Shown here one piece after another: positions 2,635 through 47,109 of a stretch of DNA of 64,000 nt. Origin of the DNA: a virus (lineage: Duplodnaviria; Caudoviricetes); the IMG/VR virus record IMGVR_UViG_3300032227_000993, one strand, 5' to 3'. How positions within the stretch are numbered: position 1 is the stretch's first letter; each line of letters starts with the position of its first letter. Under the pieces are notes generated by a model. It worked only from the letters and a program-made list of their open reading frames with translations, searched no databases and was not told the DNA's origin. The position numbers and the translations under genes were made by a program.

Positions 2635-2710
2635 TGGTGCCCTCACCATGATTCGAACACGGGACCCCCTGATTACAAATCAGGTGCTCTACCGACTGAG
2701 CTATAAGGGC
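2635..2710 (-). tRNA. tRNA-Thr(TGT)
   Basis: Cloverleaf GCCCTTATAGCTCAGTCGGTAGAGC..., anticodon loop TT-TGT-AA, GTTCGAATC, CCA encoded. Confidence 0.95.
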
Positions 2711-2718
2711 AGTATTTG

Positions 2719-2934
2719 TTATTCTGCGACTACTGCTACTTCTGGTGCTCGGTAAGTAGGACGAGCTTTTAATTCTGTAATACGACGTTGAATTTTTGCC
2801 ACGTGTTTCTTGCGAGCATTGGTCACTAATTTTTCTAATTGAGCCACATTCAACGGACCCAAACGCTCTTTACCATTCTTGGTACGCATTGGATCTGCTT
2901 TACGAGTTTTTTGATTTCCACCTTTGGTTGCCAT
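2719..2934 (-). CDS. small basic phage hypothetical protein
   Basis: 71-aa Lys/Arg-rich ORF with AAAGGAA RBS. Confidence 0.7.
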   Translation of the reverse strand: MATKGGNQKTRKADPMRTKNGKERLGPLNVAQLEKLVTNARKKHVAKIQRRITELKARPTYRAPEVAVVAE

Positions 2935-2957
2935 AATTGTTCCTTTGTTATTTTTAC

Positions 2958-4097: not shown

Positions 4098-4821
4098 AAT
4101 AACCAGGGAATAAATTTACTAAATTAAATTGACTGTAGTCAACAGGAATAACGCCTTGTTTATTGTTTACAACAATATCTTTGATCAAGTCTTTGACTTG
4201 TTCGTGTACACCGTCGCTTAAATGACCAGTGCGATCCATAATGTAAGGGGCAACTCCTACACGTTCGCCTTCACCTAAACTTAATGTTTCAAACGCAAAG
4301 TCAACCAGTGTACCTCCGCTAAAGTATTTCTTAGCCAACTCCTGCGAGCTTGTTGTGTTGGGTAAAAAGATAAATTTAGTATTGGGATACTGTCTAGGTA
4401 ATTCTAAACACCACTTGACCATGAGTTCAAATTCAAACTCATGCTCATCTTTGCTGTACAGATATCTATAGTACTTGTCGGCAGCGTCTTGTATTTCAGC
4501 TTCTTTGGCAGCCAGCTCACCTAAATCTCTGCCTTCAATTTTGGCTGTAATAACTCGCTCAGTTAAATTGTCAGTGTACAATCTATGAGGCCAAGTAAAA
4601 GTAAAAATGGCAACATCAAAATTAATTTTTGCTGACCACCGCTTCCATTCAGCAATGGCATAGTATTGACTGGTGCCACCTAGTCCCGAACAGATAAATG
4701 GAGCGGCTAGATCGTCAAGCAATCGATGCGCCCAAATTTTTCTACCCAATGGTATATTGGGATTTTCACGCCTATGCCACACAGTATCAATGTAACTGTC
4801 GCCAAAAAACCCTATCTTCAT
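4090..4821 (-). CDS. hypothetical protein, SGNH/GDSL-like hydrolase fold
   Basis: Likely start MKIGFFGDSY at 4821 (ATGA overlap with upstream stop); GDS block and late GH. Confidence 0.5.
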   Translation of the reverse strand: MKIGFFGDSYIDTVWHRRENPNIPLGRKIWAHRLLDDLAAPFICSGLGGTSQYYAIAEWKRWSAKINFDVAIFTFTWPHRLYTDNLTERVITAKIEGRDLGELAAKEAEIQDAADKYYRYLYSKDEHEFEFELMVKWCLELPRQYPNTKFIFLPNTTSSQELAKKYFSGGTLVDFAFETLSLGEGERVGVAPYIMDRTGHLSDGVHEQVKDLIKDIVVNNKQGVIPVDYSQFNLVNLFPGYYD

Positions 4822-5450
4822 TGCGGAACGGTGTAGTGGATTTGTAGTAGCTCGCGCATTTTGTATTGTGAATGCTTGTTCCAATTAGAAGTACAATGTA
4901 GTTGAATAGTTTCAAATAATGCTGCGGCACCGGCTTCGTAGGTAAAAATACCATCCAAGTTTAAATAGTCAGCCATGTACTTTCCATTGTTGGGATCTTG
5001 TGTATGCTCCAGGTCTTCAGTTTCACTGATGTTAGAAATCTTAGTAGCAGTTTCTGGATTCCAAGTCATAAAATATTCTTCAACCATCTTGGCATTGCTG
5101 GCTGATTTTTCTTTGAATACGATGGTTTTAAATTCAGGAATAGTATCTAACGCAATCACATACGTCCATGTTGGATGAGGAGTCTGCATTGAGTAGTCGT
5201 CAATATGGATAAGGTGCGCACGGCTTTGGCGCTGTAGTGCGCACCAGATGTCTGTGGCATTAGGATGTACAGCACGAACAATGTCTTCAATAATTTTAAA
5301 TTCTTTATCTTGTGGCACAACTTGTAATCTGTGATCGATAACGCCATCGTCTACTTCAAAATTAACGTAGACACGGTCTTTTTTATCTTCCCAAAATTGT
5401 CTAAAATCAACAATTTGTTCTGGTGTAACAAGTTTTTTAAATATTTGCAT
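4818..5450 (-). CDS. hypothetical protein, possible 2OG-Fe(II) oxygenase-like
   Basis: HIDD...LHCT...R pattern; RBS upstream. Confidence 0.4.
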   Translation of the reverse strand: MQIFKKLVTPEQIVDFRQFWEDKKDRVYVNFEVDDGVIDHRLQVVPQDKEFKIIEDIVRAVHPNATDIWCALQRQSRAHLIHIDDYSMQTPHPTWTYVIALDTIPEFKTIVFKEKSASNAKMVEEYFMTWNPETATKISNISETEDLEHTQDPNNGKYMADYLNLDGIFTYEAGAAALFETIQLHCTSNWNKHSQYKMRELLQIHYTVPQ

Positions 5451-5505
5451 GTTGTTCTCTTTGTGTTATTATTACTTATTATTTTCAACAGTCAACTTTA
5501 AAAAA

Positions 5506-6510
5506 TTAACTTGAAAATTGTTCCATTACCTTATCAAATTTACCACATTGTTTAGCACACTCTTTTATGCCTGTTGTACTCCAAGCTGCTTCTACCTGAT
5601 CAAAATATCCGCTGTTAAAAATTTCTTCTAAGGTTTGATTATTAAGATTTGGCCAATACTTAATGGTATCCAAGTATTGTGTTTTGTTATGATGAGCGCG
5701 AATGTAAGTCATATCTAACCAACAACATGGAGTTACAGTACCGTCAGCACCGATGTAGACTTGATTGTCATTTTTTGCCTTGCAATTAATAACAGGTAAC
5801 TGTTGTTCTTCGGCCTTGATTACTTTACTTATCATATTGGTGCTTTTAATAGTCGGCTGTATGATGTGGACAGTTTTGCTGGTAGTGCTAGTAGTGCTAG
5901 AAGTGCTAGTGGTAACAGGTAATTTGTCAATGGTAAATCGATTTGTATTTTTTGTAAAAAATTCAGCGAATCCCATTTGTTTGCTGAGTTCTCTACAAGT
6001 GTCTGCTTGGTGTTCGTTATGTTGAAATACTAACATATCCCATCTAGCACGACCTCCAGCCTTGATAAATTCTTTAGCATTGTTAATAATTTTATTCCAT
6101 TCAGTGTTTATTCTGTACAAATGATGGGTATCCTCTAGCCCGTCAATGGCAAATACAACATCTACCCGCAAGTTGGCAAGTTCTACAAACCACTCGGGTG
6201 TTCGTGCGCTACCGTTGGTGTACAGCTCTAATGTCATGTTATTATTATGACTACGCAGATATTTAAAAATTTCCATAGTATCTTTGGCTACAATGGCGTC
6301 ACCAAGATTACCGCACATTTTTAAATGATTCAATTGTTTTACAAATTCCACTGAGAACCAAGTCTCAAACTGGTTTAATGTAATTTCAGTCAAGTTTACT
6401 AGGGGTGAAAGCAAACCGTTGGGTTCGTAACGACCGCACATAGGGCATTTGGCTTGGCACTTAGATGTAATTTCAAGATGTACCGATCTTAATTGATTAA
6501 TTTTGTACAT
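5506..6510 (-). CDS. radical SAM/SPASM protein (paralog of 12959-13975)
   Basis: CQAKCPMC, GNLGD, TNGS, FAIDGLEDTHHLYR, C-terminal PCC and C...C. Confidence 0.85.
   Translation of the reverse strand: MYKINQLRSVHLEITSKCQAKCPMCGRYEPNGLLSPLVNLTEITLNQFETWFSVEFVKQLNHLKMCGNLGDAIVAKDTMEIFKYLRSHNNNMTLELYTNGSARTPEWFVELANLRVDVVFAIDGLEDTHHLYRINTEWNKIINNAKEFIKAGGRARWDMLVFQHNEHQADTCRELSKQMGFAEFFTKNTNRFTIDKLPVTTSTSSTTSTTSKTVHIIQPTIKSTNMISKVIKAEEQQLPVINCKAKNDNQVYIGADGTVTPCCWLDMTYIRAHHNKTQYLDTIKYWPNLNNQTLEEIFNSGYFDQVEAAWSTTGIKECAKQCGKFDKVMEQFSS
5882..5908. repeat. 9-bp tandem repeat (GTAGTGCTA x2 + GAAGTGCTA) encoding a Thr/Ser-rich insert
   Basis: Seen directly; encodes part of TTSTSSTTSTTS in the radical SAM protein. 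Confidence 0.8.
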
Positions 6511-6547
6511 CTGTTATTTATTTTGACCTGAAGCCAGGATTATTGAT

Positions 6548-6637
6548 TGGCGGAGAGTGTGAGATTCGAACTCACGATAGTGTTACCACTATGACGGTTT
6601 AGTAGACCGTTGGTTTCAGCCGCTCACCCAACTCTCC
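6548..6637 (-). tRNA. tRNA-Ser(ACT), unusual A34 anticodon
   Basis: GGAGAGT/ACTCTCC acceptor, G73, long variable arm, stem ACGGT/ACCGT with loop CT-ACT-AA, CCA. Confidence 0.9.
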
Positions 6638-6654
6638 AGTTACTACAATAATTC

Positions 6655-6730
6655 TGGCTCCCCAACCAGGACTTGAACCTGGGACCAACAGATTAACAGT
6701 CTGCTGCTCTACCGACTGAGCTATCGGGGA
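6655..6730 (-). tRNA. tRNA-Asn(GTT)
   Basis: Cloverleaf, loop CT-GTT-AA, GTTCAAGTC, CCA. Confidence 0.95.
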
Positions 6731-6762
6731 ATAACCTGTGCTACGCTTGCATGGGTATTGTG

Positions 6763-7089
6763 TTACTTATCGCGACGCTCGTGTCGATGACTGATTTTGT
6801 AAGTTTTGCCAAACAACTCGTAGCCTACGAGACCTTGTTCGACTTCCTGTAGTGCTGTCACACGATTTCCGTATTTACGTTCAATCAAAGTAGCATCGCC
6901 GCGATTTAATTCGCGAACACGATTGGCCACAATCAATACTGCGTCATAGCGTGTGCCAATCATCTCTGCGGCACGTTGTCCTGTGCGCCCTTCGATACTG
7001 TTACTGTCATAAAATTTATCAAGTTTGTAACGCAATACAGTATTGCCATCGCTTTGAATTTGTGTTACTACTCTTGTGGTATCAATCAT
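6763..7089 (-). CDS. rpoZ: RNA polymerase omega subunit homolog with N-terminal extension
   Basis: AAEMIGTRYDAVLIVANRVREL...VTALQEVEQG aligns by eye with E. coli omega [22 protein letters not shown]...VIALREIEEG. Confidence 0.75.
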   Translation of the reverse strand: MIDTTRVVTQIQSDGNTVLRYKLDKFYDSNSIEGRTGQRAAEMIGTRYDAVLIVANRVRELNRGDATLIERKYGNRVTALQEVEQGLVGYELFGKTYKISHRHERRDK

Positions 7090-7107
7090 TTTATTTCCTA
7101 ATTAAAG

Positions 7108-7260
7108 TTAGTGTGGGATTTGTACTGGCAAGTACGGAACCGCTCGAGGACCATGACGTTGCTGCAAGAGTTTACGAGCTTCGTAGGCATCATCGGCGCC
7201 TACTCGATCCTTAAATTCTTTACCGTCGGGTCCTCTGACAGTTGCTTCGTACAGTTTCAT
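7108..7260 (-). CDS. small hypothetical protein (50 aa)
   Basis: MKLYEATVRGPDGKEFKDRVGADDAYEARKLLQQRHGPRAVPYLPVQIPH; coupled to upstream ORF. Confidence 0.6.
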   Translation of the reverse strand: MKLYEATVRGPDGKEFKDRVGADDAYEARKLLQQRHGPRAVPYLPVQIPH

Positions 7261-7261
7261 A

Positions 7262-7426
7262 TTATTTTGCCAAGATAGCTGCTTGTTTCAATGCTTTGAT
7301 GAGTTCGTGGGTGCGTCGCTTGGCAGCCATAATACTACGACTAGCGTGTGCTCGCTTTTCAGATTTACTCCATTGTCCTGCTAAAGTACGTTGTAATTCG
7401 GTTGCGGTTTGTTGTGGTTTTGCCAT
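7262..7426 (-). CDS. small basic hypothetical protein (54 aa)
   Basis: MAKPQQTATELQRTLAGQW...; strong AAGGAG RBS. Confidence 0.65.
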   Translation of the reverse strand: MAKPQQTATELQRTLAGQWSKSEKRAHASRSIMAAKRRTHELIKALKQAAILAK

Positions 7427-7448
7427 GACTTTCTCCTTATTAATAACT

Positions 7449-7477
7449 ATTGTACAGTAATATTCATACTATGTCAA
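7449..7477 (-). promoter_or_regulatory. sigma70-type promoter TTGACA-17-TACAAT
   Basis: Exact hexamers and 17-nt spacer on minus strand. Confidence 0.75.
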
Positions 7478-7483
7478 CAACTC

Positions 7484-7560
7484 TGGTACCCCTGGAAGGA
7501 TTCGGACCTCCATATCCCGCCTTCTTGGAGCGGTGACTTTACCAGTTTGTCTACAGGGGT
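7484..7560 (-). tRNA. non-canonical tRNA, most likely Leu(AAG), short variable arm
   Basis: ACCCCTG/CAGGGGT acceptor, A73, CCA; stem CCGCT/GGCGG with loop CC-AAG-AA (C33); T-loop TCCGAAT instead of TTCGAAT. Confidence 0.7.
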
Positions 7561-7566
7561 AAATCT

Positions 7567-8172
7567 CTATGTTACTTGTGTGGTACCATTTCCATTCTTG
7601 AAACCAACAACACCACCTTCTTCTCTGATGCGGGCTAATACATCTTCAAGTAGGATAGGCCTAAAGTCAGTTTGCTCCACGCATACACAATGGTATCTAG
7701 GATCAATCCACCGACGCCCACGCTCTACAAACTCTTGTGTAGTTTGTGCTGTTTTCATAACACGTTGCGTGTGCAAGTGACCATGAATGTTGACGCCAAA
7801 ACGACCAAGACTATCTTCATGAATAGGAATGTGCGTTAAAATCATTCCATTCATGACGTGTACACCACGCAGGCTTCTAAAGTAAGGAGCATAGTCCTCG
7901 TCCTTAAAAATATCGTGATTACCACGAATAAGAATCTTGTCACCGTTGAGTCTATTCATGATAGGCAAACTCTTACGACTCATAACAACGTCACCCAAGT
8001 GATAAACTTTGTCGTTAGGGCCCACAGTTTCGTTCCACGCTTTGACCATGGCCTCATCCATTTCATCTGGATTGTCCCACGGGCGGATTTTGACTCCTGT
8101 GTCTTCGTGAGTAAAGCGGCACACACCAGCGTGACCAAAGTGCGTGTCTGACGTCAAAAATACTGCTGGCAT
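7567..8172 (-). CDS. calcineurin-like metallophosphoesterase
   Basis: SDTHFGH, HLGD, GNHD, THIP, HGHLH motifs. Confidence 0.85.
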   Translation of the reverse strand: MPAVFLTSDTHFGHAGVCRFTHEDTGVKIRPWDNPDEMDEAMVKAWNETVGPNDKVYHLGDVVMSRKSLPIMNRLNGDKILIRGNHDIFKDEDYAPYFRSLRGVHVMNGMILTHIPIHEDSLGRFGVNIHGHLHTQRVMKTAQTTQEFVERGRRWIDPRYHCVCVEQTDFRPILLEDVLARIREEGGVVGFKNGNGTTQVT

Positions 8173-8202
8173 GGTGTGCTCCTTTCTTTAGGTTAATAAA
8201 GC

Positions 8203-8231
8203 ATTGTACTACAATTAGAATTTATTGTCAA
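8203..8231 (-). promoter_or_regulatory. sigma70-type promoter TTGACA-17-TACAAT
   Basis: Exact hexamers upstream of the phosphoesterase gene. Confidence 0.7.
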
Positions 8232-10360
8232 ATCGGCATTTGACTGATCAACTGGGCAAATTTTTCATAGTAGTCTTTGCGCGGTAATAAACCTCGTACC
8301 TGTTGTTGACTTTGTAAAGATTGTGGATTTGATTTATTACGGTCAGTTGTATTGGAATACCACTGAACAAAGGGCATTTTAAAATCTAAACACAAGGCTT
8401 GATTATTCCACATACCCGGACTGCTTTGAGTTTTCTCACCGTTGTTGTTGTAGTAAAAGTGTTTATGGAAAAACTCAACATCAAGCAGTAAATCGCAACG
8501 GTCAATAACCAGCGATTTAATTATGATATTTTTATCACGTAAAATATTGCCATCAACATCGACTTCTGTATCGTTTGTACCTTTGTTGGTCATCTGTAGA
8601 CTCAAGCAATTTAATTTATGAAGATCAATTACAGGAACTTCAAACTCTATTAAATGCTCACCTTGATCAAGGCAGCGTTCAACTATGGTAGTGTCGTTAA
8701 TTTTTACCACCAAGTTGGGATTAGTTATGCAAGCATTTGCCTCTACACCAAGTTGAACAGTCAACGATTTTTTGCTGTTTAGTATAGATTCAACCACTTG
8801 GTCAACATCAGCAATGGGATCAAACTGTGAAGTGTCGCCCTGTGCGTTGATATCAAAAAATTTATTAAGTCCGTCTAAATTGGCACGTGCTGATTCGTAA
8901 ACAGATTGTAATAAACTAGTTTCTTCAAGTTCAACACTCATATCCAACTCATCACATAACTTACTTAAAATTAAACGTCGCTGTAGTCTTACCTTGCTGG
9001 TGTTACCTCTATTGTTTCTGGCAATCCATCCAAACATACCTAAATCGTGTTGTTGATGAATATTGATATTGTAATCTGCTGGCGTGCCTGGGAGCAAATT
9101 GTAGGGTATTCCCAATAGCATACCGCTGATAGTTCCTGATCTAATGTAGGGGATGAGTTTAATGATCATGTCGCAATGATCCATAAAGTCTTCGTGACGC
9201 TCACTCCAGTGGCCTACAAAACTTAACAAGGTACACGAAATACCGTAGCGTTTGAAATAGTCTAGCTCAAAGAACAAAGCTTCGACTGTAGTTTTTTTAT
9301 CCATGTGGTCCAATACATAATTACTGCCGCTCTCGGCACCTATGGTCAAACCATGTCCTCCGCTTTTAACGATTGAGTCGTAGTATTGATCGATATCAGG
9401 CATATTCTGCATTTCTCGACAAATATATTGCCCAGTCCATGTGATGGGAATTGGAGCCACAGCATTATGTTGGATAAGTCTATTGATAAATTGTTTAAAA
9501 ATTTTCAAGCCGCCGTTACTCAAACTATCGGCCATTACAAATTTATTAATTTTAAATTTTTCTTGTAACGCAATTAGTTCTTCGGCAAATGCTACGCCGT
9601 CCTTGAACCGATACCGACCAAACTGTTTTTTAATATCGCAAAAATCACAGTCGCGTACACATCCGGTACTACCAATTACATCAAGCGACCGAACATTGTC
9701 GGGCCACTGGTATCTATCAAAATCATAATCGCTGTAGTCGGGCCAAGTGATATCTAAGTTGTCTCTTTTATTTTGTTTAGATTCGCTGGTGCCAGTAGCT
9801 AAAAACTCTAGCAGTGCATCTTCGGCATCGCCTATCACATAGTGTTTTACAAGGCCGCGATCTTTGAGTATGTAGACTAGGTCTGTTTTTACTTCAGAAC
9901 CTGTTATGTCTAATAAACTAATAGCTGTACTGGCTGGAAAGCAAGAGATGCCGCGTCCGCCAAGTACTATTCGATCAGTCATGCCTAATTTTTCAAATCG
10001 TCTTAATAAATCTATAGCAATTCGATGAGTGTAAACACTAAACACACTAAACCCAATGTATCTAGCATTGGCACTGATTACAGTATCAATAATGTAATCG
10101 TAAAATTCTTCTATCTGATTAATTTCGTCTGAATCAATCTCGGCACCTGGCACAATAAAATAATTTGATAGTCTGCTGGAAACATCAACGTTTCCTTTAC
10201 AACATACATGGAAAAAGTCACCAGAAAAATCAAAACATCTAGCACGGTACCCTGCTTCTTCGGCAATACCTTTTAAAATAGCTGGAGCCGAATAGATCCG
10301 ATCCATGCCTAGCGGTGGTAGCGAGCAGAATACTATGTCATAGTTGTAGTTATTATTCAT
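8228..10360 (-). CDS. cobalamin-binding-type (class B-like) radical SAM protein with C-terminal extension
   Basis: N-terminal B12-binding-like Rossmann region (GFSVFSVY, VLGG), GCVRDCDFC, IGAESGSNYVLDHMDK. Confidence 0.8.
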   Translation of the reverse strand: MNNNYNYDIVFCSLPPLGMDRIYSAPAILKGIAEEAGYRARCFDFSGDFFHVCCKGNVDVSSRLSNYFIVPGAEIDSDEINQIEEFYDYIIDTVISANARYIGFSVFSVYTHRIAIDLLRRFEKLGMTDRIVLGGRGISCFPASTAISLLDITGSEVKTDLVYILKDRGLVKHYVIGDAEDALLEFLATGTSESKQNKRDNLDITWPDYSDYDFDRYQWPDNVRSLDVIGSTGCVRDCDFCDIKKQFGRYRFKDGVAFAEELIALQEKFKINKFVMADSLSNGGLKIFKQFINRLIQHNAVAPIPITWTGQYICREMQNMPDIDQYYDSIVKSGGHGLTIGAESGSNYVLDHMDKKTTVEALFFELDYFKRYGISCTLLSFVGHWSERHEDFMDHCDMIIKLIPYIRSGTISGMLLGIPYNLLPGTPADYNINIHQQHDLGMFGWIARNNRGNTSKVRLQRRLILSKLCDELDMSVELEETSLLQSVYESARANLDGLNKFFDINAQGDTSQFDPIADVDQVVESILNSKKSLTVQLGVEANACITNPNLVVKINDTTIVERCLDQGEHLIEFEVPVIDLHKLNCLSLQMTNKGTNDTEVDVDGNILRDKNIIIKSLVIDRCDLLLDVEFFHKHFYYNNNGEKTQSSPGMWNNQALCLDFKMPFVQWYSNTTDRNKSNPQSLQSQQQVRGLLPRKDYYEKFAQLISQMPI

Positions 10361-10415
10361 TGATATTGGAAAAGAGTGTCAAATATTTATCTGACACTCT
10401 TGTAATGGTGTACTA

Positions 10416-10799
10416 CTAATTTAGTGGAAGGCCTCTTGCGGCCCTTCCACTACCTTTGTTTCTTGCGCTAAATGTATCAGTTTGGCTGTGACAGTTGGGA
10501 CATATTAATCTTAAATTCTCTGGATTGTTATTTCCAGCGTTTCCGTTGATATGATCAACTTGTAAAGTTAAAGGCTTATTGTTATGCTCGCTAATACCAC
10601 AGCAACTACATCTATAACCTTTAATTTCCGTTAACACTTTTCTAATAGTATTGCGATCACTTACTTCGCCACGATTAAATCTATTAATTGTTTTTGTAAA
10701 CATTCCTTTAGCACTACACCCATTACTACAATACACATTCATTTTGGAATGAGACCAATTAGATTTAATTCCACAACTTTTACAATTATATGTTTTCAT
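10416..10799 (-). CDS. HNH endonuclease (free-standing, in tRNA cluster)
   Basis: C..C zinc motifs, VDHINGNAGNNNPENLRLICPNCH. Confidence 0.9.
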   Translation of the reverse strand: MKTYNCKSCGIKSNWSHSKMNVYCSNGCSAKGMFTKTINRFNRGEVSDRNTIRKVLTEIKGYRCSCCGISEHNNKPLTLQVDHINGNAGNNNPENLRLICPNCHSQTDTFSARNKGSGRAARGLPLN

Positions 10800-10813
10800 A
10801 ATTTTAAATAGAT

Positions 10814-10887
10814 TGGAGCGGGTAGCGAGAATCGAACTCGCGAATAGTCCTTGGCAAGGACTCGGGTTACCATTACATCATACCCGC
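10814..10887 (-). tRNA. tRNA-Gly(GCC)
   Basis: Cloverleaf, loop TT-GCC-AA, U73, CCA. Confidence 0.95.
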
Positions 10888-10895
10888 ACTAAATC

Positions 10896-11486
10896 TTAAT
10901 AGCTTACTAGTCTTGGACTAAAAGCAAAAGTTGCTGGGTAGTTGGCAATAAATGCCGCATTGGTTGGATCATTGATGTAGGCTGGATCAACCAAGGCACG
11001 GATATTCCAACCAAGATTAAGATACAGGCACTTGCCAAAGATATGTACAAAAAGAACATATTGAAACAGGCCTTGACCTTTGACCAACAAGTGACCAGGA
11101 TTCTGTTCATTACAGTTCAAATCACCCGACCAACTCATACCGTCTGTGCCATGTAGATACTTGACAGCAAAGCCATAAAACGGATTACGCCATAACCACT
11201 GGACCTTTGACCACCAGCAGGGATTATGAGCGGCACGGAATGTTTGGTCACCATCTAGGCTGTTGTCCGGCGTTTGCCACCAACCTAGCCAACTAAACAA
11301 GCGTGGACCCGACTCCCATACAGTACCATTGTTACACCAACCTGTTTGGGTGCTGTACATGATGCCAATAATAAAAGCAAGTGGGAATGTTAAAATAGTA
11401 CCAACTAAGTTAACAGGAACTAAGACTAAAAAGTATAAAAAATAGATCATAAAATCTCCTTGTGAACTATTTAATGTGTTGTGCAA
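10896..11486 (-). CDS. hypothetical membrane protein
   Basis: Hydrophobic N-terminus, WWQTPDNSLDGD...WLWRNP. Confidence 0.65.
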   Translation of the reverse strand: MHNTLNSSQGDFMIYFLYFLVLVPVNLVGTILTFPLAFIIGIMYSTQTGWCNNGTVWESGPRLFSWLGWWQTPDNSLDGDQTFRAAHNPCWWSKVQWLWRNPFYGFAVKYLHGTDGMSWSGDLNCNEQNPGHLLVKGQGLFQYVLFVHIFGKCLYLNLGWNIRALVDPAYINDPTNAAFIANYPATFAFSPRLVSY

Positions 11487-11500
11487 CCTGATTAAAATAA

Positions 11501-11574
11501 TGGAGCGGGATATCGGAATCGAACCGATGACCGAAGATTGGAAATCTGCTGTTTTGCCCCTAAACTAATCCCGC
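11501..11574 (-). tRNA. tRNA-Gly(TCC)
   Basis: Cloverleaf, loop TT-TCC-AA, CCA. Confidence 0.93.
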
Positions 11575-11575
11575 A

Positions 11576-11650
11576 TGGTGGGCCTTCTAAGAATTGAACT
11601 TAGACTCCAACGATTATGAGTCGTTTGCTTTACCATTAAGCTAAAGGCCC
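11576..11650 (-). tRNA. tRNA-Ile2(CAT) (lysidine type)
   Basis: GGGCCTT/AAGGCCC acceptor, loop CT-CAT-AA, resembles bacterial Ile2 rather than Met. Confidence 0.85.
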
Positions 11651-11657
11651 AACAAAT

Positions 11658-11731
11658 TGGCTCCGAGCCAGGGAATTGAACCCCATCCAACAGGTTTGGA
11701 GTCTGCTGTGCTACCGTAACACTTGCCCGGA
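11658..11731 (-). tRNA. tRNA-Trp(CCA)
   Basis: Loop CT-CCA-AA, G73, CCA; A31-C39 mismatch. Confidence 0.88.
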
Positions 11732-11735
11732 ATTG

Positions 11736-11817
11736 TTAGGTGAGAGTTATCCTCTCAAAACCGTACCTTACAGCGTCCTGTAAGTTCACTAGTAAATCCT
11801 AGTTATCAAAGTGAGCA
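11736..11817 (-). ncRNA. candidate three-hairpin structured RNA between tRNA-fMet and tRNA-Trp
   Basis: GCTCACTT, then hairpins ACTAG/CTAGT, CTTACAG/CTGTAAG, TGAGAG/CTCTCA, then CCTAA; same end motifs as 45216-45309. Confidence 0.5.
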
Positions 11818-11842
11818 TTGTTAAGAGGCTTGACCGGGTGTT

Positions 11843-11916
11843 TGGTTGCGGGTCCTGGAATCGCACCAGGGACTAGAGCTTATGAGACTCTCGAGATACT
11901 CCTTCTCCAACCCGCG
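11843..11916 (-). tRNA. tRNA-fMet(CAT)-like, divergent
   Basis: C1:A72 mismatch, loop CT-CAT-AA; anticodon stem AGAGT/GCTCT lacks the three G-C pairs; T-loop TGCGATT. Confidence 0.8.
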
Positions 11917-11922
11917 ATAGAT

Positions 11923-11998
11923 TGGTGGAGGTGACAGGACTTGAACCCGCTACATCCTGCTTGCAAAGCAGGCGCTCTACCAGATGAGCTACACCCCC
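11923..11998 (-). tRNA. tRNA-Ala(TGC)
   Basis: Canonical cloverleaf, G3:U70, loop TT-TGC-AA, CCA. Confidence 0.95.
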
Positions 11999-12006
11999 AA
12001 ATAATT

Positions 12007-12081
12007 TGGTACACCCTAGGAGAATCGAACTCCTCTTCCGCCCGTGAAAGGGGCGTGTCCTAACCGATAGACGAAGGGTGC
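12007..12081 (-). tRNA. tRNA-Glu(TTC)
   Basis: Stem CGCCC/GGGCG, loop CT-TTC-AC, CCA. Confidence 0.93.
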
Positions 12082-12084
12082 TAA

Positions 12085-12240
12085 GTGCCCGGCTACGCTT
12101 ATGTCGTGCGCCCCGGGCTAGGAATAATCATCGTTAGCTAGATCCGCTCTAGCTGGCGTGATAGATTTAAGTCTAACCTATCCAACCCTTGACTTTCTGG
12201 CAAGTCCGCAACCCCCGATTAAACCCCCGAGCAGGGTGAC
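12085..12240 (-). ncRNA. candidate GC-rich multi-hairpin RNA between tRNA-Tyr and tRNA-Glu
   Basis: Hairpins GACTT/AAGTC, GATAG/CTATC, AGCTAGA/TCTAGCT, GCCCGG/CCGGGC; no ORF. Confidence 0.45.
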
Positions 12241-12245
12241 ATTCT

Positions 12246-12329
12246 TGGTGGAGAATACTGGGATCGAACCAGTCATGCCGTAGGCGCCGGATTTACAGTC
12301 CAGTGCATCACCATTGATGCTTCTTCTCC
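12246..12329 (-). tRNA. tRNA-Tyr(GTA)
   Basis: Long variable arm, loop CT-GTA-AA, A73, CCA. Confidence 0.93.
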
Positions 12330-12330
12330 A

Positions 12331-12442
12331 TATAGTAAAGCGCACTCAATCCTAGAAGTTTCGAACCTTCTAAGTAACCCGCGGAAGGTGTACCGGTAAG
12401 ACTCCGCATTTATGTATTAAGTGGCAAGTGCGCTTTACTATA
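12331..12442 (-). ncRNA. candidate tRNA-like RNA closed by a 16-bp perfect inverted repeat
   Basis: TATAGTAAAGCGCACT (12331-12346) / AGTGCGCTTTACTATA (12427-12442); internal TAGAAG-GTTCGAAA-CTTCTA T-arm-like hairpin and GCGGA/TCCGC hairpin. Confidence 0.55.
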
Positions 12443-12505
12443 CACTAATTTTTTGTTCTACAAGAAGAACTCCATCCTAGTGCCCGCCCGTTTGTGTTAA
12501 GTTAT

Positions 12506-12535
12506 AGTGTAACACAGGACCTCGTTTCCTGTCAA
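12506..12535 (-). promoter_or_regulatory. sigma70-type promoter TTGACA-18-TACACT upstream of tRNA array
   Basis: Hexamers on minus strand; spacer contains ACAGGA/TCCTGT inverted repeat. Confidence 0.6.
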
Positions 12536-12551
12536 CCACTTATCTTGCTGT

Positions 12552-12722
12552 TTAATCTTCGATTTGAAAATAAACAGCGTCTCGTGCCTGGATCATTTCC
12601 TTGGCACGTTGGATCTTGTTTTGAAACAGTCTGGTCTTCATTTCTTCAGTCAGCGTTAAGTTACTGACTTCCCAGGCTTGTTTTACAACTCGATCGTTTA
12701 GATTACTGTAATCTATTGTCAT
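12552..12722 (-). CDS. small hypothetical protein (56 aa)
   Basis: MTIDYSNLNDRVVKQAWEVSNLTLTEEMKTRLFQNKIQRAKEMIQARDAVYFQIED; GAAAGGAA RBS. Confidence 0.6.
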   Translation of the reverse strand: MTIDYSNLNDRVVKQAWEVSNLTLTEEMKTRLFQNKIQRAKEMIQARDAVYFQIED

Positions 12723-12736
12723 ACATTTCCTTTCAT

Positions 12737-12767
12737 AAAAAAAGCCCCTAACTACTTAGAGGCTTTT
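12737..12767 (-). terminator. intrinsic terminator (attenuator candidate)
   Basis: AAAGCCTCTAA-GTAG-TTAGGGGCTTT followed by T-run. Confidence 0.75.
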
Positions 12768-12790
12768 GAATAATAAACAAATACACACTA

Positions 12791-12892
12791 CTATTCAAAC
12801 GCCTTGACTCCTAGTTCTACGCCGCAACCATTGGCCCACACCCCAATTTGATTAGGAAGTATTGTTAAGAGTGTATATATTAAATGTTTCAT
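12791..12892 (-). CDS. putative leader peptide (33 aa)
   Basis: MKHLIYTLLTILPNQIGVWANGCGVELGVKAFE, downstream of ATAAATA (12920-12914) and upstream of a terminator. Confidence 0.5.
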   Translation of the reverse strand: MKHLIYTLLTILPNQIGVWANGCGVELGVKAFE

Positions 12893-12958
12893 AATAGTGT
12901 TATTGTACTAGGTTATTTATCTTTTGTCAACCTGTATTTTACCATAAATATCGACTCA

Positions 12959-13975
12959 ATGCTCAAACTCCACGAAATACAACAACTTCAGATAGAATTA
13001 ACCACTAGATGCAATGCTCGCTGTCCTTTGTGTATGCGAAACTATCGCGGTATGGAACACAACGATGGTTATCCAGAAACAGAACTACGCTTGGCAGATA
13101 TCCAGCGGATGTTCCCCGCAGAATTTCTAAAACAAATCAAACGGATACTGTTCAACGGTAATCTTGGAGATTTTGGTCTGGCCAAAGACAGCATAGAAAT
13201 AGTAAAATATTTTTTAGCCAACGGCATCAAAGAAATTGATATTTCCACCAACGGAAGTATGCGAACCACAGATTGGTGGGCACAATTAGCCTTACCAGGA
13301 GTTACTGTAGGGTTTGCTCTGGATGGCATGGCCGACACACACCATTTGTACAGACAAGACACAGACTGGCACAAAATTATTGAAAACGCTCAAGCTCTAA
13401 TACAGGCTGGCGGACGTGCTGTATGGCGTTTCATTCCATTTGATCACAATCGACATCAGATGGAAACTTGCCGGGCATTTTCAAAACAATTGGGATTTGT
13501 TGATTTTCAGGACATTGGGCATGGAAGAAATCGAACTTATGTCTACAATCGTACTGGCGAGTACAGTCATCTTATCGGCGAACCGTTTCAGCCATCGGAC
13601 TTGACCGACCCGCCCAAGATACAACAACTGGTAGAGCATCATCTTACTTGGTTTGATCCAAAAACATTCAAACAAGAACAAGACACCAGCGATTTGGAAA
13701 TTGATTGCCATCATAAACGATTCAAGGAACTGTATGTAGCTGCCAATGGAGAAGTGTATCCCTGCTGTTTTCTTGGCTTTTATCCGCAGACAATGCATCA
13801 TCCAGGCAATGTACAATTAAAACCTATTGTAAAACAAAACAATGCGTTGCACTACAGTTTAGAAACGTGTATTGAGTGGTTCAACGACGTAGAGGAATCA
13901 TGGCATCGCGAAAGCATTGCCGACGGTAGGATGTACATTTGTGTCAATACCTGTGCCGTAAAAAAAGCACCCTAG
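12959..13975 (+). CDS. radical SAM/SPASM protein (paralog of 5506-6510)
   Basis: CNARCPLC, GNLGD, TNGSMR, PCC; likely start MLKLHE at 12959, 8 nt after TAAATA. Confidence 0.85.
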   Translation: MLKLHEIQQLQIELTTRCNARCPLCMRNYRGMEHNDGYPETELRLADIQRMFPAEFLKQIKRILFNGNLGDFGLAKDSIEIVKYFLANGIKEIDISTNGSMRTTDWWAQLALPGVTVGFALDGMADTHHLYRQDTDWHKIIENAQALIQAGGRAVWRFIPFDHNRHQMETCRAFSKQLGFVDFQDIGHGRNRTYVYNRTGEYSHLIGEPFQPSDLTDPPKIQQLVEHHLTWFDPKTFKQEQDTSDLEIDCHHKRFKELYVAANGEVYPCCFLGFYPQTMHHPGNVQLKPIVKQNNALHYSLETCIEWFNDVEESWHRESIADGRMYICVNTCAVKKAP

Positions 13976-13986
13976 GGTGCTTTTTT
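13960..13986. terminator. bidirectional intrinsic terminator
   Basis: AAAAAAGCACC-CTAG-GGTGCTTTTTT between convergent genes. Confidence 0.85.
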
Positions 13987-14000
13987 GTTACATTTAAAAA

Positions 14001-14738
14001 TTATTCAAATGTTTTGGTTAATGTAGCTACCCAAGCATCTTTGTACAACTGCTGACCATTGACGGTATTAGCACGTTGATTCTGAGTAGTCATGCTTGTG
14101 TTTGTGTAATAACGAACACCAATATCCCAAGCCTTGGGTAATGTGTAAACAGCACCTACGTTGATATCATTATAACTTGCGTTACCATGATTAGCAACTG
14201 CTGTACGACCATAGTGAGCAACAAAACTCAAGTCTTTGAGTTTAGCTGTCAAAGGAGCGAACGATTGTTTAACATCGGCTTGATAGTATTGTGTACCAGC
14301 ACTATTATTCACACCAAAGTAATTACTAGTAGAACGACTGTACTTAAGAGCAACAGGACCATAACCTACGCCAGCATACAATTCTTGTGTGTTGAAGTTA
14401 GGATTTTTACCATTGGTAGCATTAGGATAAAAATAGTTATAAGAACCAACATCGATTGTTAGACCCTTGTAAATATCTTTCTTGTATCCAGCATAGATGT
14501 CTGACTCTACACCAGCGCCGTTTGTATACAGTTGGCTAGAAACACTACTGTTCCAGTTACCAATGTACAAACCGCTTGAGTGAGTGTAGTCGATACCACC
14601 TTGTACTGCTGGGCCATTTTGAGTTTGACTGATACCACGGAAACGGTAATCACTTGCCAAACCTAAATTGCCTGTTACTTGTGCGTGGGCAGAAGTGATA
14701 CCTGCAATCGCAAACAATGCTAATAATAATTTTTTCAT
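14001..14738 (-). CDS. TorF-type (TIGR02001-like) outer-membrane beta-barrel/porin
   Basis: Signal peptide, SDYRFRGISQT, PAVQGGIDY, GLYIGNW, alternating beta strands, C-terminal TKTFE. Confidence 0.8.
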   Translation of the reverse strand: MKKLLLALFAIAGITSAHAQVTGNLGLASDYRFRGISQTQNGPAVQGGIDYTHSSGLYIGNWNSSVSSQLYTNGAGVESDIYAGYKKDIYKGLTIDVGSYNYFYPNATNGKNPNFNTQELYAGVGYGPVALKYSRSTSNYFGVNNSAGTQYYQADVKQSFAPLTAKLKDLSFVAHYGRTAVANHGNASYNDINVGAVYTLPKAWDIGVRYYTNTSMTTQNQRANTVNGQQLYKDAWVATLTKTFE

Positions 14739-14843
14739 TCTAAATTTCCTTTATGTTTTGTACTGCTTAGACTTATATTTAGTGGGCCAACAACAGATCA
14801 ACAAATTTTACAGTAAAAGCAGCGCAATAATTTACATATTTAG

Positions 14844-14870
14844 GCAAAACAAAACCCGCCGAAGCGGGTT
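14844..14870 (-). terminator. intrinsic terminator after tmRNA
   Basis: AACCCGC-TTCG-GCGGGTT followed by TTGTTTTG. Confidence 0.8.
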
Positions 14871-14874
14871 AAGT

Positions 14875-15230
14875 GGTAGTTTCTGTTACGAGGCATTTCC
14901 TGCCCTAAGCAGTGATTAAACTGCTAAAGATTGGCGTTGTGCTGAACGAGCAGAGAACTTAACGTTCTTACCTGAAACAGTTACTTCGCCTGTAGATGTT
15001 TTTGCATTTACAAAGTTTGCTTGATTTACAGTCATCGCCTACTGTGTTGCCTCTTTCGCTATCTCGCCATGTCGAAACCGGTCGGACCCAACAAAGCATA
15101 CTGTGTGGATCTTACGATGGGCCCTCGAAGGGTTGTCCCCACACTCCAGTAGACAATATGCTTTGGTGGATCCGGGGAGAATCGAACTCCCGTCCACAGC
15201 GCCTTCACTACGAAGGAATTACAACAATTC
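14875..15230 (-). ncRNA. ssrA: circularly permuted two-piece tmRNA
   Basis: Acceptor piece (T-arm GGGAGTTCGATTCTCCC, CGGATCC-A-CCA ending 15164) precedes intervening hairpin AAGCATA/TATGCTT and coding piece starting GGGTCCGACCGGTTTCGAC at 15089; G3:U70; tag ORF 15005-14916 AKTSTGEVTVSGKNVKFSARSAQRQSLAV. Outer ends approximate. Confidence 0.88.
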
Positions 15231-15239
15231 TTTTAAAAC

Positions 15240-15479
15240 TTACAGAACGATTTCAGCACTTGCTGGATTGTACGAGGTAATGTATGTGATCCAAGCATCA
15301 GCAGCATTTGTATCTTTCCAAGTACGAGCAACAGTATATTGTGTTTGACCAAAAGTTCTAGTAGCAGCACCGTCGGTGTCGCCATTAGCAACTAATTGTG
15401 CAACATATTCTGTGATAGCAGTACTTTCGGCAGTTGTTGGAGTTCCGTTATTCCAAGTTACTAGTGTGTTAGTAGTCAT
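15240..15479 (-). CDS. hypothetical protein (79 aa, Thr/Ala-rich)
   Basis: ORF with AAGGA RBS. Confidence 0.6.
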   Translation of the reverse strand: MTTNTLVTWNNGTPTTAESTAITEYVAQLVANGDTDGAATRTFGQTQYTVARTWKDTNAADAWITYITSYNPASAEIVL

Positions 15480-44397: not shown

Positions 44398-45216
44398 ATG
44401 TCAACTGATATTATTGTCCAATTTCAAGATTTGCCCGATTTGAACATAGAACTTTACCAAACATCATTTAAACAACAGTACAAAGATCTTGTTAAACGTA
44501 ATGCTCTAATTGAACCAGCAACCTACAGAGATCCCTGTCATTACAGTCCAGAATTATTGAACCAATTAGCACACCAGGCCAAAGAGCTTTTTGGTTGGGA
44601 GTGGATTGACGCTGACTACACTGACTTTAGAACTACCATGGCCCTACATAAAGAATTAGAAGTTTTGGCAGGAACCGACATGGGCTACAAAGTGATACCT
44701 CGCGAACATCGGCCTTTAGTAACTGAAATACATCACTGTTTACACAGTCTAGAAATAGCAGTACAACAAAATTTTGATCCGGTTCGTCGTCGTGGCGCTC
44801 ACTTGCAGTTAGAGTGGTTTGTAGATGATGGCTTTCCACTGCCCGAAGATTTTGAGTTTAGTCTAGGATGGAAATTTGGTGACATCAAGTTACAAAATCC
44901 TTTTGTAGGGCATCCACCAATACAAGTTTACAAAGATAACGATTATGAAAATGTCAGTCAAACTTGCAAATTTCACAACTATGTTAGGCCTGGAATTATT
45001 CCCATGTTAAATTCGCATACTCCATCATTTGATGTGGATGATTATTTGTCTTGGTTTAGAGCCAATGGCACAGACTTTTTAGCCAAGTTTGGCGAAGAGC
45101 GTACAGTACATTATGCTGGCTGGCCTATTGTTGGTTGTGTAACAAACTTGGATGATTTAGTTACTATTAGTCGTGCGCCAAGTGTTGTGGTTGAATCTGT
45201 CGTAGTAATTGATTAA
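44398..45216 (+). CDS. hypothetical protein
   Basis: Sequence reads ATG TCA ACT GAT on the plus strand at 44398 and ends TAA at 45214-45216, so plus strand; TAAATA 5 nt upstream. Confidence 0.7.
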   Translation: MSTDIIVQFQDLPDLNIELYQTSFKQQYKDLVKRNALIEPATYRDPCHYSPELLNQLAHQAKELFGWEWIDADYTDFRTTMALHKELEVLAGTDMGYKVIPREHRPLVTEIHHCLHSLEIAVQQNFDPVRRRGAHLQLEWFVDDGFPLPEDFEFSLGWKFGDIKLQNPFVGHPPIQVYKDNDYENVSQTCKFHNYVRPGIIPMLNSHTPSFDVDDYLSWFRANGTDFLAKFGEERTVHYAGWPIVGCVTNLDDLVTISRAPSVVVESVVVID

Positions 45217-45309
45217 GCTCACTTAAGCAATGCCTTCCGGGCACGACTCCTTAGCATCACAAGGCAGCAGCCGCCTACACCAAACGTAACTAAGTTACGG
45301 TCCTAAGGT
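45216..45309. ncRNA. candidate rRNA-mimic / rRNA-antisense structured RNA
   Basis: Plus strand carries AGCTCACT, CAGCAGCCGC, CGTAACTA and ACGGTCCTAAGGT, identical to conserved 23S/16S rRNA segments, within three hairpins. Confidence 0.55.
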
Positions 45310-46454
45310 GATTCTTTTAATAAATGACTGATAGCCGGCACCATGGCATGGACGTCAAGATCACGCTCGGCAGCTAATAATGTTGTTTGCTTTTTTAATT
45401 CATCGAGACTACTGTACGCTTGATCATTCAAACGATCTACAGCTATTTTAAAGGGATTACCCAATGAGGCGTGCCAGTTGCCCGGTACAGTATCAGCATA
45501 TTCTAAAAACTGTTCTGTAAGTTTGAGTTTTTCATCTGCCGGCAATAACGATACTGTTTGCCAAGCTGGCCAGGATATCCAATTGAAACTCATTTTCCAT
45601 GTTGGAAATTTATCTATCATGTATTGAATAATATTTTTTAAATCATAGATATTAAAGATATTCATTACTGTATGTGTTTCTAAACTGATGTTTGGATGAT
45701 TGCCCCATAAATCTTGATATTGTTGCATTACAGATTCTACCTGCTCAAATTTACTTGGCCAACGATACCAATCATTTACAGAGGCAATGCCGTCCAAACT
45801 AACTTTTAATCTAACCAATTTACATTGTTCGATCAAGCCGCTTAATTCAGCATTTGGTAATTTTGTTCCGTTGGTGGCAATGTACATAGATTCAATGTTA
45901 TCAAAGTTAATTTTTTTCATCAAATTGATAAAGCGTTTTTGTTCCATAAACGGTTCGCCACCAATAATTTTAAGTTCAGTTATTTGTGAGAGATCTTCTA
46001 ACTCTTCGATTGGATGACCATGTTCAACAAAACTACCACTAAGATTACGTCCGTGTTTAAAATCTTCAGTGGCCCAGGTAGACGAAAAAGATCTAGTGCA
46101 ACTTACGCAGGCAAGATTACACAGGTTACTAAAACTCATTTCTAAAAATTTTAACGGAGCAGCTTCAACTTTGGTGTAAGTAGCTGGATATTGATCGCGG
46201 CGTATTGTGCGTAAACTTTTAGCGCCACTTGCTTCTTCGGTGTAACAATTAGAGCACTCTTTAACAGATTCTCCGGCTAACATTTTTTGCCTGATGTTTT
46301 GCCAGCCTGGTTGGTTGCGCATATCTGGACCCATTGGGTTCTCAACAGGCCATAGGTGATATTGTTTAGGTTTGAACTTACAACAAGGAATTGAAGTACC
46401 GTCAGGGCGTACTGCTAAACTATCCCATGCCCACTGGCACATTGAGTCATTCAT
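45303..46454 (-). CDS. radical SAM/SPASM-type protein
   Basis: CNLACVSC, GGEPF, TNG, N-terminal PCC...C..C; likely start MNDSM at 46454 after AGGA. Confidence 0.85.
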   Translation of the reverse strand: MNDSMCQWAWDSLAVRPDGTSIPCCKFKPKQYHLWPVENPMGPDMRNQPGWQNIRQKMLAGESVKECSNCYTEEASGAKSLRTIRRDQYPATYTKVEAAPLKFLEMSFSNLCNLACVSCTRSFSSTWATEDFKHGRNLSGSFVEHGHPIEELEDLSQITELKIIGGEPFMEQKRFINLMKKINFDNIESMYIATNGTKLPNAELSGLIEQCKLVRLKVSLDGIASVNDWYRWPSKFEQVESVMQQYQDLWGNHPNISLETHTVMNIFNIYDLKNIIQYMIDKFPTWKMSFNWISWPAWQTVSLLPADEKLKLTEQFLEYADTVPGNWHASLGNPFKIAVDRLNDQAYSSLDELKKQTTLLAAERDLDVHAMVPAISHLLKESP

Positions 46455-46467
46455 GCTGTTCCTAATG

Positions 46468-47109
46468 TTAATTTTTTCTGAAACTAGGTGCCGACGTGTA
46501 TCCAGTTCTATCAATTTCTTCGGCTTGACTAAGTAAACCAACTTTAGTATCAATCATAGCTTTTGCCCACATTATTTGATTGCGGACAAAAATATCAATC
46601 ACATCGTCTGGATCTTTTCTACTTTTAATATCCATGCCATCATCAACAGCACTTACAAACGCATCAGGTGGAACTGTAAAACCCAAGTAGCTGGCAAATC
46701 CAAATGCCTTGGCGGCTGTAGCTTGCCAGCCATCATCGGACCCAGATACGATAATGCCAAATGTTTTACCATAGTGCGGATTAAAATTATTTTTAATCCC
46801 CCAATCATCTATGTAACCCATGCGTTCCATAAGTGCTTGTATGTAACTGCTGTATGTACCCCACCAAATAGGTGTAGCAAAAATAATACCGTCGTATTTT
46901 AGTATTTCTTTTAGAACCCAAGTCATGTCATCAGCAACGCCGTCTCTGCGTACTCGATCTACACCAGGCTCAAAATTTAAATCTCTTAAAACAATTTCAT
47001 TAACTTCGACACCGTGACGATTGAACTCAGCAATGACTCGATCAACTACCTTTTGAGTATTTGATTCTTCTGGCGGTGTTAGAGATCCATTAAGAACAAG
47101 AAATTTCAT
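46468..47109 (-). CDS. flavodoxin-like NAD(P)H-dependent FMN reductase (WrbA/SsuE family)
   Basis: LVLNGS...SNT, DGIIFATPIWWG, GKTFG. Confidence 0.85.
   Translation of the reverse strand: MKFLVLNGSLTPPEESNTQKVVDRVIAEFNRHGVEVNEIVLRDLNFEPGVDRVRRDGVADDMTWVLKEILKYDGIIFATPIWWGTYSSYIQALMERMGYIDDWGIKNNFNPHYGKTFGIIVSGSDDGWQATAAKAFGFASYLGFTVPPDAFVSAVDDGMDIKSRKDPDDVIDIFVRNQIMWAKAMIDTKVGLLSQAEEIDRTGYTSAPSFRKN

Follow-up and report, generated by a model that had tools for sequence, protein, structure and literature searches.

A 64,000-nt stretch of DNA from a tailed phage (Duplodnaviria; Caudoviricetes; IMG/VR record IMGVR_UViG_3300032227_000993), here called the window, contains a spacer of ~95 nt (45216–45309) with several words identical to conserved parts of ribosomal RNA (rRNA), and the locus raises the question of why they are there. 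The original prediction, made from the letters alone, was that the spacer encodes an RNA built from the functional centres of the ribosome, either an rRNA mimic or an antisense guide to rRNA. The spacer is instead one copy of a structured, phage-specific RNA family of 65–110 nt that is new to description. Its members share a fold of covarying stems and a pseudoknot, occur as a single copy, are widely distributed in freshwater and are absent from known RNA families. Of the four rRNA words, three arise from this fold, two as pairing partners of one another and the third as a stem that is not always present, and are not copied ribosomal centres; the resemblance to rRNA stems mostly from the base-pairing of the element itself and not from ribosome mimicry.

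The spacer reads as first described and sits between convergent open reading frames (ORFs) at 44398–45216 (plus strand) and 45303–46553 (minus strand), an arrangement borne out by the ORF list. All four words are present where they had been placed, and their numbering is exact against Escherichia coli MG1655 rrnH (reference L002): AGCTCACT equals 23S 1098–1105, CAGCAGCCGC equals 16S 519–528, CGTAACTA equals 23S 1909–1916 and ACGGTCCTAAGGT equals 23S 1919–1931. The blocks follow an order unlike that of rRNA (23S-1099, 16S-519, 23S-1909/1919). A further echo of 16S 338–357 had been proposed for ACTCCT...AGGCAGCAG; the identities are exact (16S 338–343 and 349–357, respectively), but they overlap the conserved loop of hairpin 1 and the covarying stem of hairpin 2, described below. 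Taken alone, the spacer is only mildly unusual. Sense-strand rRNA words of at least 8 nt cover 50 of its 94 nt, compared to 28 ± 12 in dinucleotide-preserving shuffles (P = 0.04), and the longest shared word is 13 nt (P = 0.002, same shuffles). Among 12,762 other 94-nt windows of the 64-kb sequence, 5.5% reach the same coverage and 0.6% share a word of at least 13 nt with rRNA, the latter rate agreeing with the ~8 13-mer loci expected by chance in 64 kb. The claim that the words were unlikely by chance comes down to a modest excess, weak for one sequence, and a caution applies to short exact rRNA matches in general, of which about that number arise by chance in each 64-kb window.

The relatives of the spacer were more informative than the spacer itself. 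A 25-mer across its last two blocks was exact in three IMG/VR contigs, in which the remaining spacer was recognisably kept. A looser pattern (AGCAGCC, 8–30 nt, ACGGTCCTAAGGT) was found in 114 viral contigs, with 80 distinct elements of 81–110 nt, and a second pattern (the hairpin-1 loop plus TCCTAAGG) in at least 120 contigs. For an independent sample, not picked by rRNA words, 80 loci of an 86-amino-acid (aa) GapR-like protein, a frequent neighbour, were scanned with a covariance model made from the shortest subfamily, and 55 of the 80 contained the element. In total, 167 distinct core sequences were collected (57 clusters at 80% identity), and the family is present in >250 IMG/VR loci, with one copy per genome. 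The window gave one significant match, also with the speed filters off, as did each fetched ~10-kb locus and each of three contigs of 299, 223, and 166 kb. Both the pattern scans and the protein-seeded scan agree with the prediction that this is a discrete structured RNA element, conserved in many phages, rather than a plain spacer.

The carriers are uncultured freshwater T4-like and jumbo phage contigs. The DNA polymerase of the window is nearest to those of jumbo T4-superfamily phages (e.g., Phosso and Atu_ph07), and freshwater metagenomes hold partial matches to the window. No copy of the element occurs in the cultured relatives Phosso and Atu_ph07, blastn against 50,697 cultured phage records gave no match to it, and an exact-pattern scan of 185,579 species genomes found no true copy (four matches, consisting of three chance matches and one 23S gene). 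Rfam 15, searched at E up to 10 with the spacer region and the loci of 12 diverse relatives, returned no family and only noise (ceN48, DUF2800, bxd_5) far below gathering scores; with the small- and large-subunit rRNA models included, there was no match to 45100–45420 at E up to 10, and at gathering thresholds no rRNA family was reported for the whole window. Neither the loop sequence nor a phage mimic of helix 69 was found in the literature, in which the csRNA survey (PMC10690425) is not searchable by sequence. The statement that no such phage element had been described agrees with the literature, Rfam 15, and the cultured phages. As a separate observation, a 23S rRNA gene on a contig of a Candidatus Dormibacteria metagenome-assembled genome (L202:4033–4120; JBPCPW010000095.1) has unrelated sequence ahead of the conserved ACGGTCCTAAGGTAGCGAAATTCC, which suggests an intron or intervening sequence inserted near 1917–1918.

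Across the family, the element folds into a tail and three hairpins, given here in the plus sense of the window.

45217–45224, plus sense: conserved tail GCTCACTT at the 5′ end, with GCTCAC invariant in 80 of 80 pattern-derived members
45227–45260, plus sense: hairpin 1, with a variable outer stem and a conserved apical loop GGGCACGACTCC (45239–45250; type a); stems covary
45262–45276, plus sense: hairpin 2, with stem AGGC/GCCT and a 7-nt loop AGCAGCC (45266–45272); three of the four stem pairs changed on both sides
45278–45314, plus sense: hairpin 3 arm; outer stem covaries

The tail of the family is GCUCACUU, beyond which its bases are not conserved. Hairpin 1 has four loop types, a (GGGCACGACUCC, as in the window), b (GGUAGCGAAUCC), c (AAUGGCGUUUAU), and d (GGUGGUAGCGGAGG), with type a in at least 120 contigs, and is reduced to a plain UUCG hairpin in L155 and L157. 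The stem of hairpin 2 has 4–5 bp across the family; the AGGC/GCCT hairpin had been called from the window and is real, as its stem covaries among relatives. The outer stem of hairpin 3, CACC (45278–45281) with GGTG (45307–45310) in the window, differs by subfamily (ACACAC/GTGTGT, CTTCAC/GTGAAG, ACACCT/AGGTGT, and others) and encloses GGUCCUAAG, with or without an inserted sub-hairpin, with UUC afterwards in the family. In the window this optional sub-hairpin is CGTAACT-A-AGTTACG (45285–45299), of which CGTAACTA forms the 5′ arm (7 bp), and the conserved GGTCCTAAG core (45299–45307) and a trailing ATTC complete the arm. The sub-hairpin is missing from the 81-nt short type and is built differently in other subfamilies. 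The CCTAAGG core is near-invariant, and the sole word conserved as sequence is the (G)UCCUAAGG core (the GUCCUAAGG core), for which the variants CGGUCCUAAGGG, ACGUCCUAAGGUAG, GGAUCCUAAGG, GGGCCUAAGG, and GGUCACUAAGG were seen.

Pair counts and covariation scores were taken from two model-guided alignments. Standard pairs fill 91.6% and 95.0% of the cells, and changes on both sides were observed in 15 of 16 and 17 of 20 pairs, respectively. Covariation scores were 0.639 and 0.544 compared to 0.156 and 0.146 in shuffles, none of 500 shuffles reached the observed score, and slid partners scored ≤0.10. The check for conservation and covariation in homologs, which had been proposed along with the prediction, returned strong covariation. 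The fold leaves ~25 invariant nucleotides unpaired. A candidate closing helix between CACUU of the tail and AAGGUG was rejected as incompatible with the covarying stem of hairpin 3 and because a CGUUUU tail, where present, is not accompanied by a compensating change.

The tail and the loop of hairpin 2 form the pseudoknot. In the window, G45217, C45218, T45219, and C45220 pair with C45271, G45270, A45269, and G45267, respectively; on alignment A5 the helix is 98.5% paired, with double changes in two of the four pairs. A pseudoknot had been proposed between an upstream GGGC and the loop GCC, and the loop does join one, but covariation in relatives identifies its partner as the GCU of the 5′ tail. 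The tail and loop combinations, with the number of distinct sequences for each exchange, are as follows.

Tail GCU, hairpin-2 loop AGC: main type
Tail CCU, hairpin-2 loop AGG: 5 distinct sequences
Tail GGU, hairpin-2 loop ACC: 3
Tail GCUAC, hairpin-2 loop GUAGC: 2
Tail GCCGCU, hairpin-2 loop AGCGGC: 3
Tail ACCACU, hairpin-2 loop AGUGGU: 1
Tail CCACU, hairpin-2 loop AGUGG: 1
Tail GCUGU, hairpin-2 loop ACAGC: 1

In the second pattern scan, 15 of 100 distinct type-a sequences had the tail and loop jointly swapped for complementary pairs that are not rRNA. Because they co-vary into non-rRNA sequences, the tail and hairpin-2 loop words are under internal constraint. The description of the words as several independent ones does not hold; the tail and the 530-loop word pair together and drift jointly off rRNA, and CGTAACTA is an optional stem.

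The likeness that remains at the family level bears first on an antisense RNA. The loops of the gene-sense (window minus) strand would be complementary to 23S 1919–1931 (up to ~24 nt in some relatives) and 16S 517–529, and in some subfamilies also to 23S 1929–1937 or 1968–1976; by annealing to host rRNA that is nascent or exposed, at the base of helices 69 and 70, such an RNA would tether, block, or mark ribosomes or pre-rRNA. Among 43 distinct members of the protein-seeded set, a word of at least 9 nt from 23S 1918–1933 is kept in 39 and a word of at least 10 nt from 16S 517–529 in 32, though the covariance model itself carries rRNA words and the set is not fully unbiased. By these counts the rRNA words recur in homologs, but the exchanges of tail and loop show that they are not conserved as rRNA words, with only CCUAAGG near-invariant. 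The probability that the family-conserved words GCUCACU, CAGCAGCCG, and G(G)UCCUAAGG would all be rRNA sense words is ~5e-5 with generous boundaries and ~2e-3 with conservative ones. Subfamilies lengthen the 23S identity on either side, as in rRNA, to the 15-mers 1917–1931 (TAACGG...) and 1919–1933 (...GGTAG), and two members, L090 and L018, are identical to 23S 1908–1931 at 23 of 24 and 22 of 24 positions; yet the best alignment score (32.2 bits) was equalled within 201 shuffled or reversed rRNA controls, a conservative test, and the bases 5′ of CCUAAGG track the local hairpin (ACG/CGU, ACC/GGU, ACGC/GCGU), not rRNA. Hairpin-3 inserts aligned globally to 23S 1900–1918 were not significant (only 3% at P ≤ 0.05), and GUAAC recurs in most inserts with differing structural roles. 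Hairpin-1 loops b and c equal 23S 1929–1937 and 1968–1976, respectively, but the commonest loop, type a, has only 6 nt in common with rRNA.

The words lie in hairpin loops, the usual sites of antisense nucleation, and a near-invariant partner such as rRNA would account for invariant loops in very different phages, while the target stretch is base-paired in the mature 50S subunit (established 23S secondary structure). The co-variation of the tail and hairpin-2 loop away from rRNA points to a constraint internal to the element, and a selection bias applies, as the spacer was chosen for inspection because of its rRNA words. Gene orientation, considered below, favours the minus strand. Overall, an anti-rRNA function is unlikely.

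A plus-sense decoy, imitating helix 69, helix 70, and the 530-loop pseudoknot in order to titrate a toxin, a modification enzyme, or a translation factor, is less probable again and would come as a surprise. The sub-hairpin ACCG-UAACUAAA-CGGU of some relatives is helix-69-like in sequence and shape, but a stem and loop of this kind occur in only a few relatives, CGUAACU is a 7-bp stem and not a loop in the window, and the 81-nt subfamily has no helix-69-like hairpin. Type b of hairpin 1 has a GG/CC-closed loop, UAGCGAAU, like that of helix 70; the structural context of GGUCCUAAG differs, forming a hairpin loop or bulge here and spanning two helices in 23S. The natural pseudoknot of 16S joins 505–507 with 524–526, and the tail/hairpin-2 pseudoknot uses the equivalents of 523–525, one register off, but GGUAA, functionally key in the 530 loop, is missing from hairpin 2 and the words mutate freely given a compensating partner. 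The plus strand has no fixed promoter signal and is antisense to nearly all neighbour genes, and no toxin is known to target exactly these sites.

On balance, a true link of the element to rRNA, be it functional or a matter of descent from rDNA once captured, is doubtful, if well worth pursuing. A functional relation, in which a phage small RNA would engage the host ribosome at the base of helix 69/70 and possibly at the 530 loop, as an antisense clamp or a decoy, is more doubtful than that. The likeness of the hairpin-3 arm to 23S helix 69/70, which reaches 23 of 24 positions in a relative, is a testable oddity.

The surroundings of the element bear on its strand and on a role in cis. In 101 of 109 loci the right-hand gene lies on the strand opposite to the plus-oriented element, ending −7 to +20 nt from it, and 28 cases, the window among them, use the TAG within CCTTAGG as the stop codon. 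Flanking genes vary widely, falling into 28 clusters upstream and 21 downstream, and linkage to a homing endonuclease or any other neighbour gene was not found in the locus neighbourhoods. In 49 of 107 loci the downstream gene encodes the GapR-like protein, judged so by eye and matching phrog_12534 / phrog_639 (‘transcriptional regulator’), with examples at L010:4877–5140 (minus strand), L013:4988–5248 (minus strand), and L034:4977–5237 (plus strand). This protein is highly conserved and found in >538 IMG/VR contigs, and its gene invariably comes with a near-consensus sigma70 promoter and an AGGAG Shine-Dalgarno sequence of its own. Within the short (81-nt) subfamily a sigma70-type promoter, TTGCAA-17-TACAAT, directly follows the element in gene sense, ahead of the GapR-like gene. 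The same pair of an upstream 65-aa membrane-protein gene and a downstream GapR-like gene occurs with or without the element (L165, L133, L138). Because the gene has its own promoter and Shine-Dalgarno sequence, and because the gene pairs exist without the element, the element is not a leader of the GapR-like gene.

A cis element of a polycistronic mRNA could be a special terminator or insulator, a cap against exonucleases at the 3′ end, a site of RNA processing, or a self-cleaving ribozyme of a new class. The element always lies just past a stop codon, ahead of the next gene or promoter; a stem-loop followed by an early promoter recalls the promoter early stem-loop (PeSL) cassettes (PMC2839356, PMC4122927). 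In three divergent members (L148, L152, L236) the tail closes a G+C-rich helix of 5–6 bp with a U tract immediately after it in the gene sense, but the window and the main family have no canonical U tract after the stem. Some divergent members apart, there is only a weak A/U-rich bias downstream of the tail, and a consensus scan for intrinsic terminators gave no site at the main hairpins of the element in the window or L138. L165 has no element, and at the corresponding position (~1100–1200) it carries a plain, weak hairpin with a U-rich tail. A generic terminator or stabiliser would recur within a genome and have no invariant loops, whereas the element is single copy. Its small size, pseudoknot, ~25 invariant unpaired nucleotides, low copy number, and intergenic site in phages are typical of small ribozymes, but no known ribozyme model matched. 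A cis role is an outside possibility that deserves attention.

Tests of the strand were largely symmetric. In the plus sense there is no −10-like hexamer at a fixed distance, only an A/T-rich stretch at −6 to −2 and a U at −1 that lengthens the pseudoknot. Exceptions to standard pairing comprised 52 A-C and 31 G-U, of which 23 A-C come from one column of near-identical sequences and the remainder are symmetric, and a helix search without a structural model returned noise (161 vs 155). The gene-sense strand folds more stably in 43 of 57 clusters, with an advantage of 2.8 kcal/mol; because folding z-scores against shuffles are equal (−0.87 vs −0.94), this edge is compositional. The public runs matching the window are DNA metagenomes, with one RNA library that covers only 46131–46400, and among the public RNA runs none holds a short-type locus. 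On gene orientation, production of the element on the gene-sense (window minus) strand is favoured, with some reserve. The even balance of G-T and A-C exceptions, as if neither RNA strand were selected, and the single copy per genome would also fit a site acting as DNA, such as a signal for replication, packaging, or recombination with a single-stranded-DNA or cruciform fold. A pseudoknot and long invariant unpaired loops are typical of RNA, however, and no recombinase, HUH nuclease, or terminase gene is conserved beside the element, and a site of this kind is highly improbable.

We consider it an even call that the element is a trans-acting or processed small RNA, its loops contacting a highly conserved partner, an unknown partner included. 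The case for such an RNA is drawn from the single copy and the independence from particular genes. The element would act as RNA, most probably transcribed in the direction of the flanking genes (window minus) as the 3′-terminal part of the upstream transcript. It would form a compact three-hairpin RNA with a pseudoknot between its first nucleotides (GCU) and the hairpin-2 loop (AGC), present once per genome whatever the flanking genes. This RNA would probably serve as a folded module that touches its partner through invariant unpaired nucleotides: those of the core CCUAAGG, the rest of AGCAGCC, and the loop of hairpin 1. Several points weigh against a trans-acting or processed RNA. The orientation of adjacent genes may be inherited rather than repeatedly selected, a location that follows stop codons and precedes promoters is consistent with 3′-end formation or protection in cis as well, and the strand tests by wobble counts and composition-controlled folding energy are symmetric. 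Further, the hairpin-3 arm is closer to 23S 1908–1933 than the fold alone needs, and no RNA run over the element was found among the public runs. No targets of the loops beyond chance occurred within the window.

In the window, the element is flanked by the following genes.

44398–45216, plus strand: convergent ORF of 272 aa (ORF list), with its stop codon abutting the tail
45303–46553, minus strand: radical SAM/SPASM gene (ORF list; Pfam and PHROG matches)

The stop codon of the radical SAM/SPASM gene, TAG (45303–45305), falls within the conserved loop of hairpin 3; this next gene is convergent, and no promoter was found after the element. Two 151-nt contigs from a fish-gut metatranscriptome match the same gene (46131–46400) at 95–99% identity, though DNA carry-over is possible and transcription is unproven. 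The 272-aa ORF, which runs opposite to most genes of the window, matches no family in Pfam or PHROG; the IMG/VR viral contig 3300010885_034836 (L001) carries a 97% identical copy at its end. ARAGORN and Rfam found no transfer RNA (tRNA) or transfer-messenger RNA (tmRNA) at 45.2 kb, with all 12 ARAGORN calls and 13 Rfam calls at 2.6–15.3 kb. There, the minus strand (2635–15256) bears a cluster of 11 tRNA genes together with a tmRNA gene of the two-piece (permuted, beta-type) kind, whose tag peptide is AKTSTGEVTVSGKNVKFSARSAQRQSLAV; this may hint at a betaproteobacterial host.

Large freshwater T4-like and jumbo phages are known carriers of translation-related genes. Among described phage RNAs, the lambda nut and HK022 put antitermination RNAs are likewise short, multi-hairpin, low-copy elements with conserved loops in phage operons. 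They lie just downstream of promoters, whereas the element (in the short subfamily) lies upstream of the next promoter, and it has no similarity to boxA/boxB or put beyond a loose UGCUC...UUUAAC likeness to rrn boxA. Conceptual precedent for short RNAs that copy a conserved cellular RNA surface, and so catch whatever binds it, exists in the rRNA mimicry of ribosomal-protein leaders and in phage RNA decoys (RNA anti-CRISPRs). Such mimics preserve the structure around the copied site and adjoin the gene they serve; in the element, the structural surroundings are unlike those in rRNA, internal pairing accounts for two of the words, and there is no linked partner gene. Comparative genomics of phage or metagenome DNA has turned up orphan structured RNA motifs and small ribozymes that cleave themselves (e.g., twister, pistol, and hatchet, or the csRNAs of PMC10690425), which share with the element its size, pseudoknot, covarying stems, ~25 invariant unpaired nucleotides, and phage intergenic setting. 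Their helix topology differs, however, and no Rfam 15 model matched at E up to 10. The GGUCCUAAG loop is superficially like GGUCCCAAG of the twister P4 loop.

Of the arrangements described so far, the closest is the PeSL cassette of T4-type phages, a simple terminator hairpin present in many copies per genome (PMC2839356, PMC4122927). Like a PeSL, the element is a small intergenic T4-like module after a gene, in regions where relatives swap flanking genes, and in the 81-nt subfamily an early sigma70-type promoter directly follows. Unlike a PeSL, it is single copy, both in the 64-kb window and in the contigs of 299, 223, and 166 kb, and it has three hairpins, a covarying pseudoknot, and invariant loops.

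With the spacer, the large T4-like and jumbo phages of freshwater gain a widespread, well-supported, and apparently undescribed family of structured RNA. Its single copy, its covarying pseudoknot, and loops that stay invariant despite differing neighbours mark the element as a good candidate for either a ribozyme or an RNA acting in trans. Should the above-chance likeness of one arm to helix 69/70 prove functional, the element would be the first known case of a phage RNA that targets or imitates rRNA.

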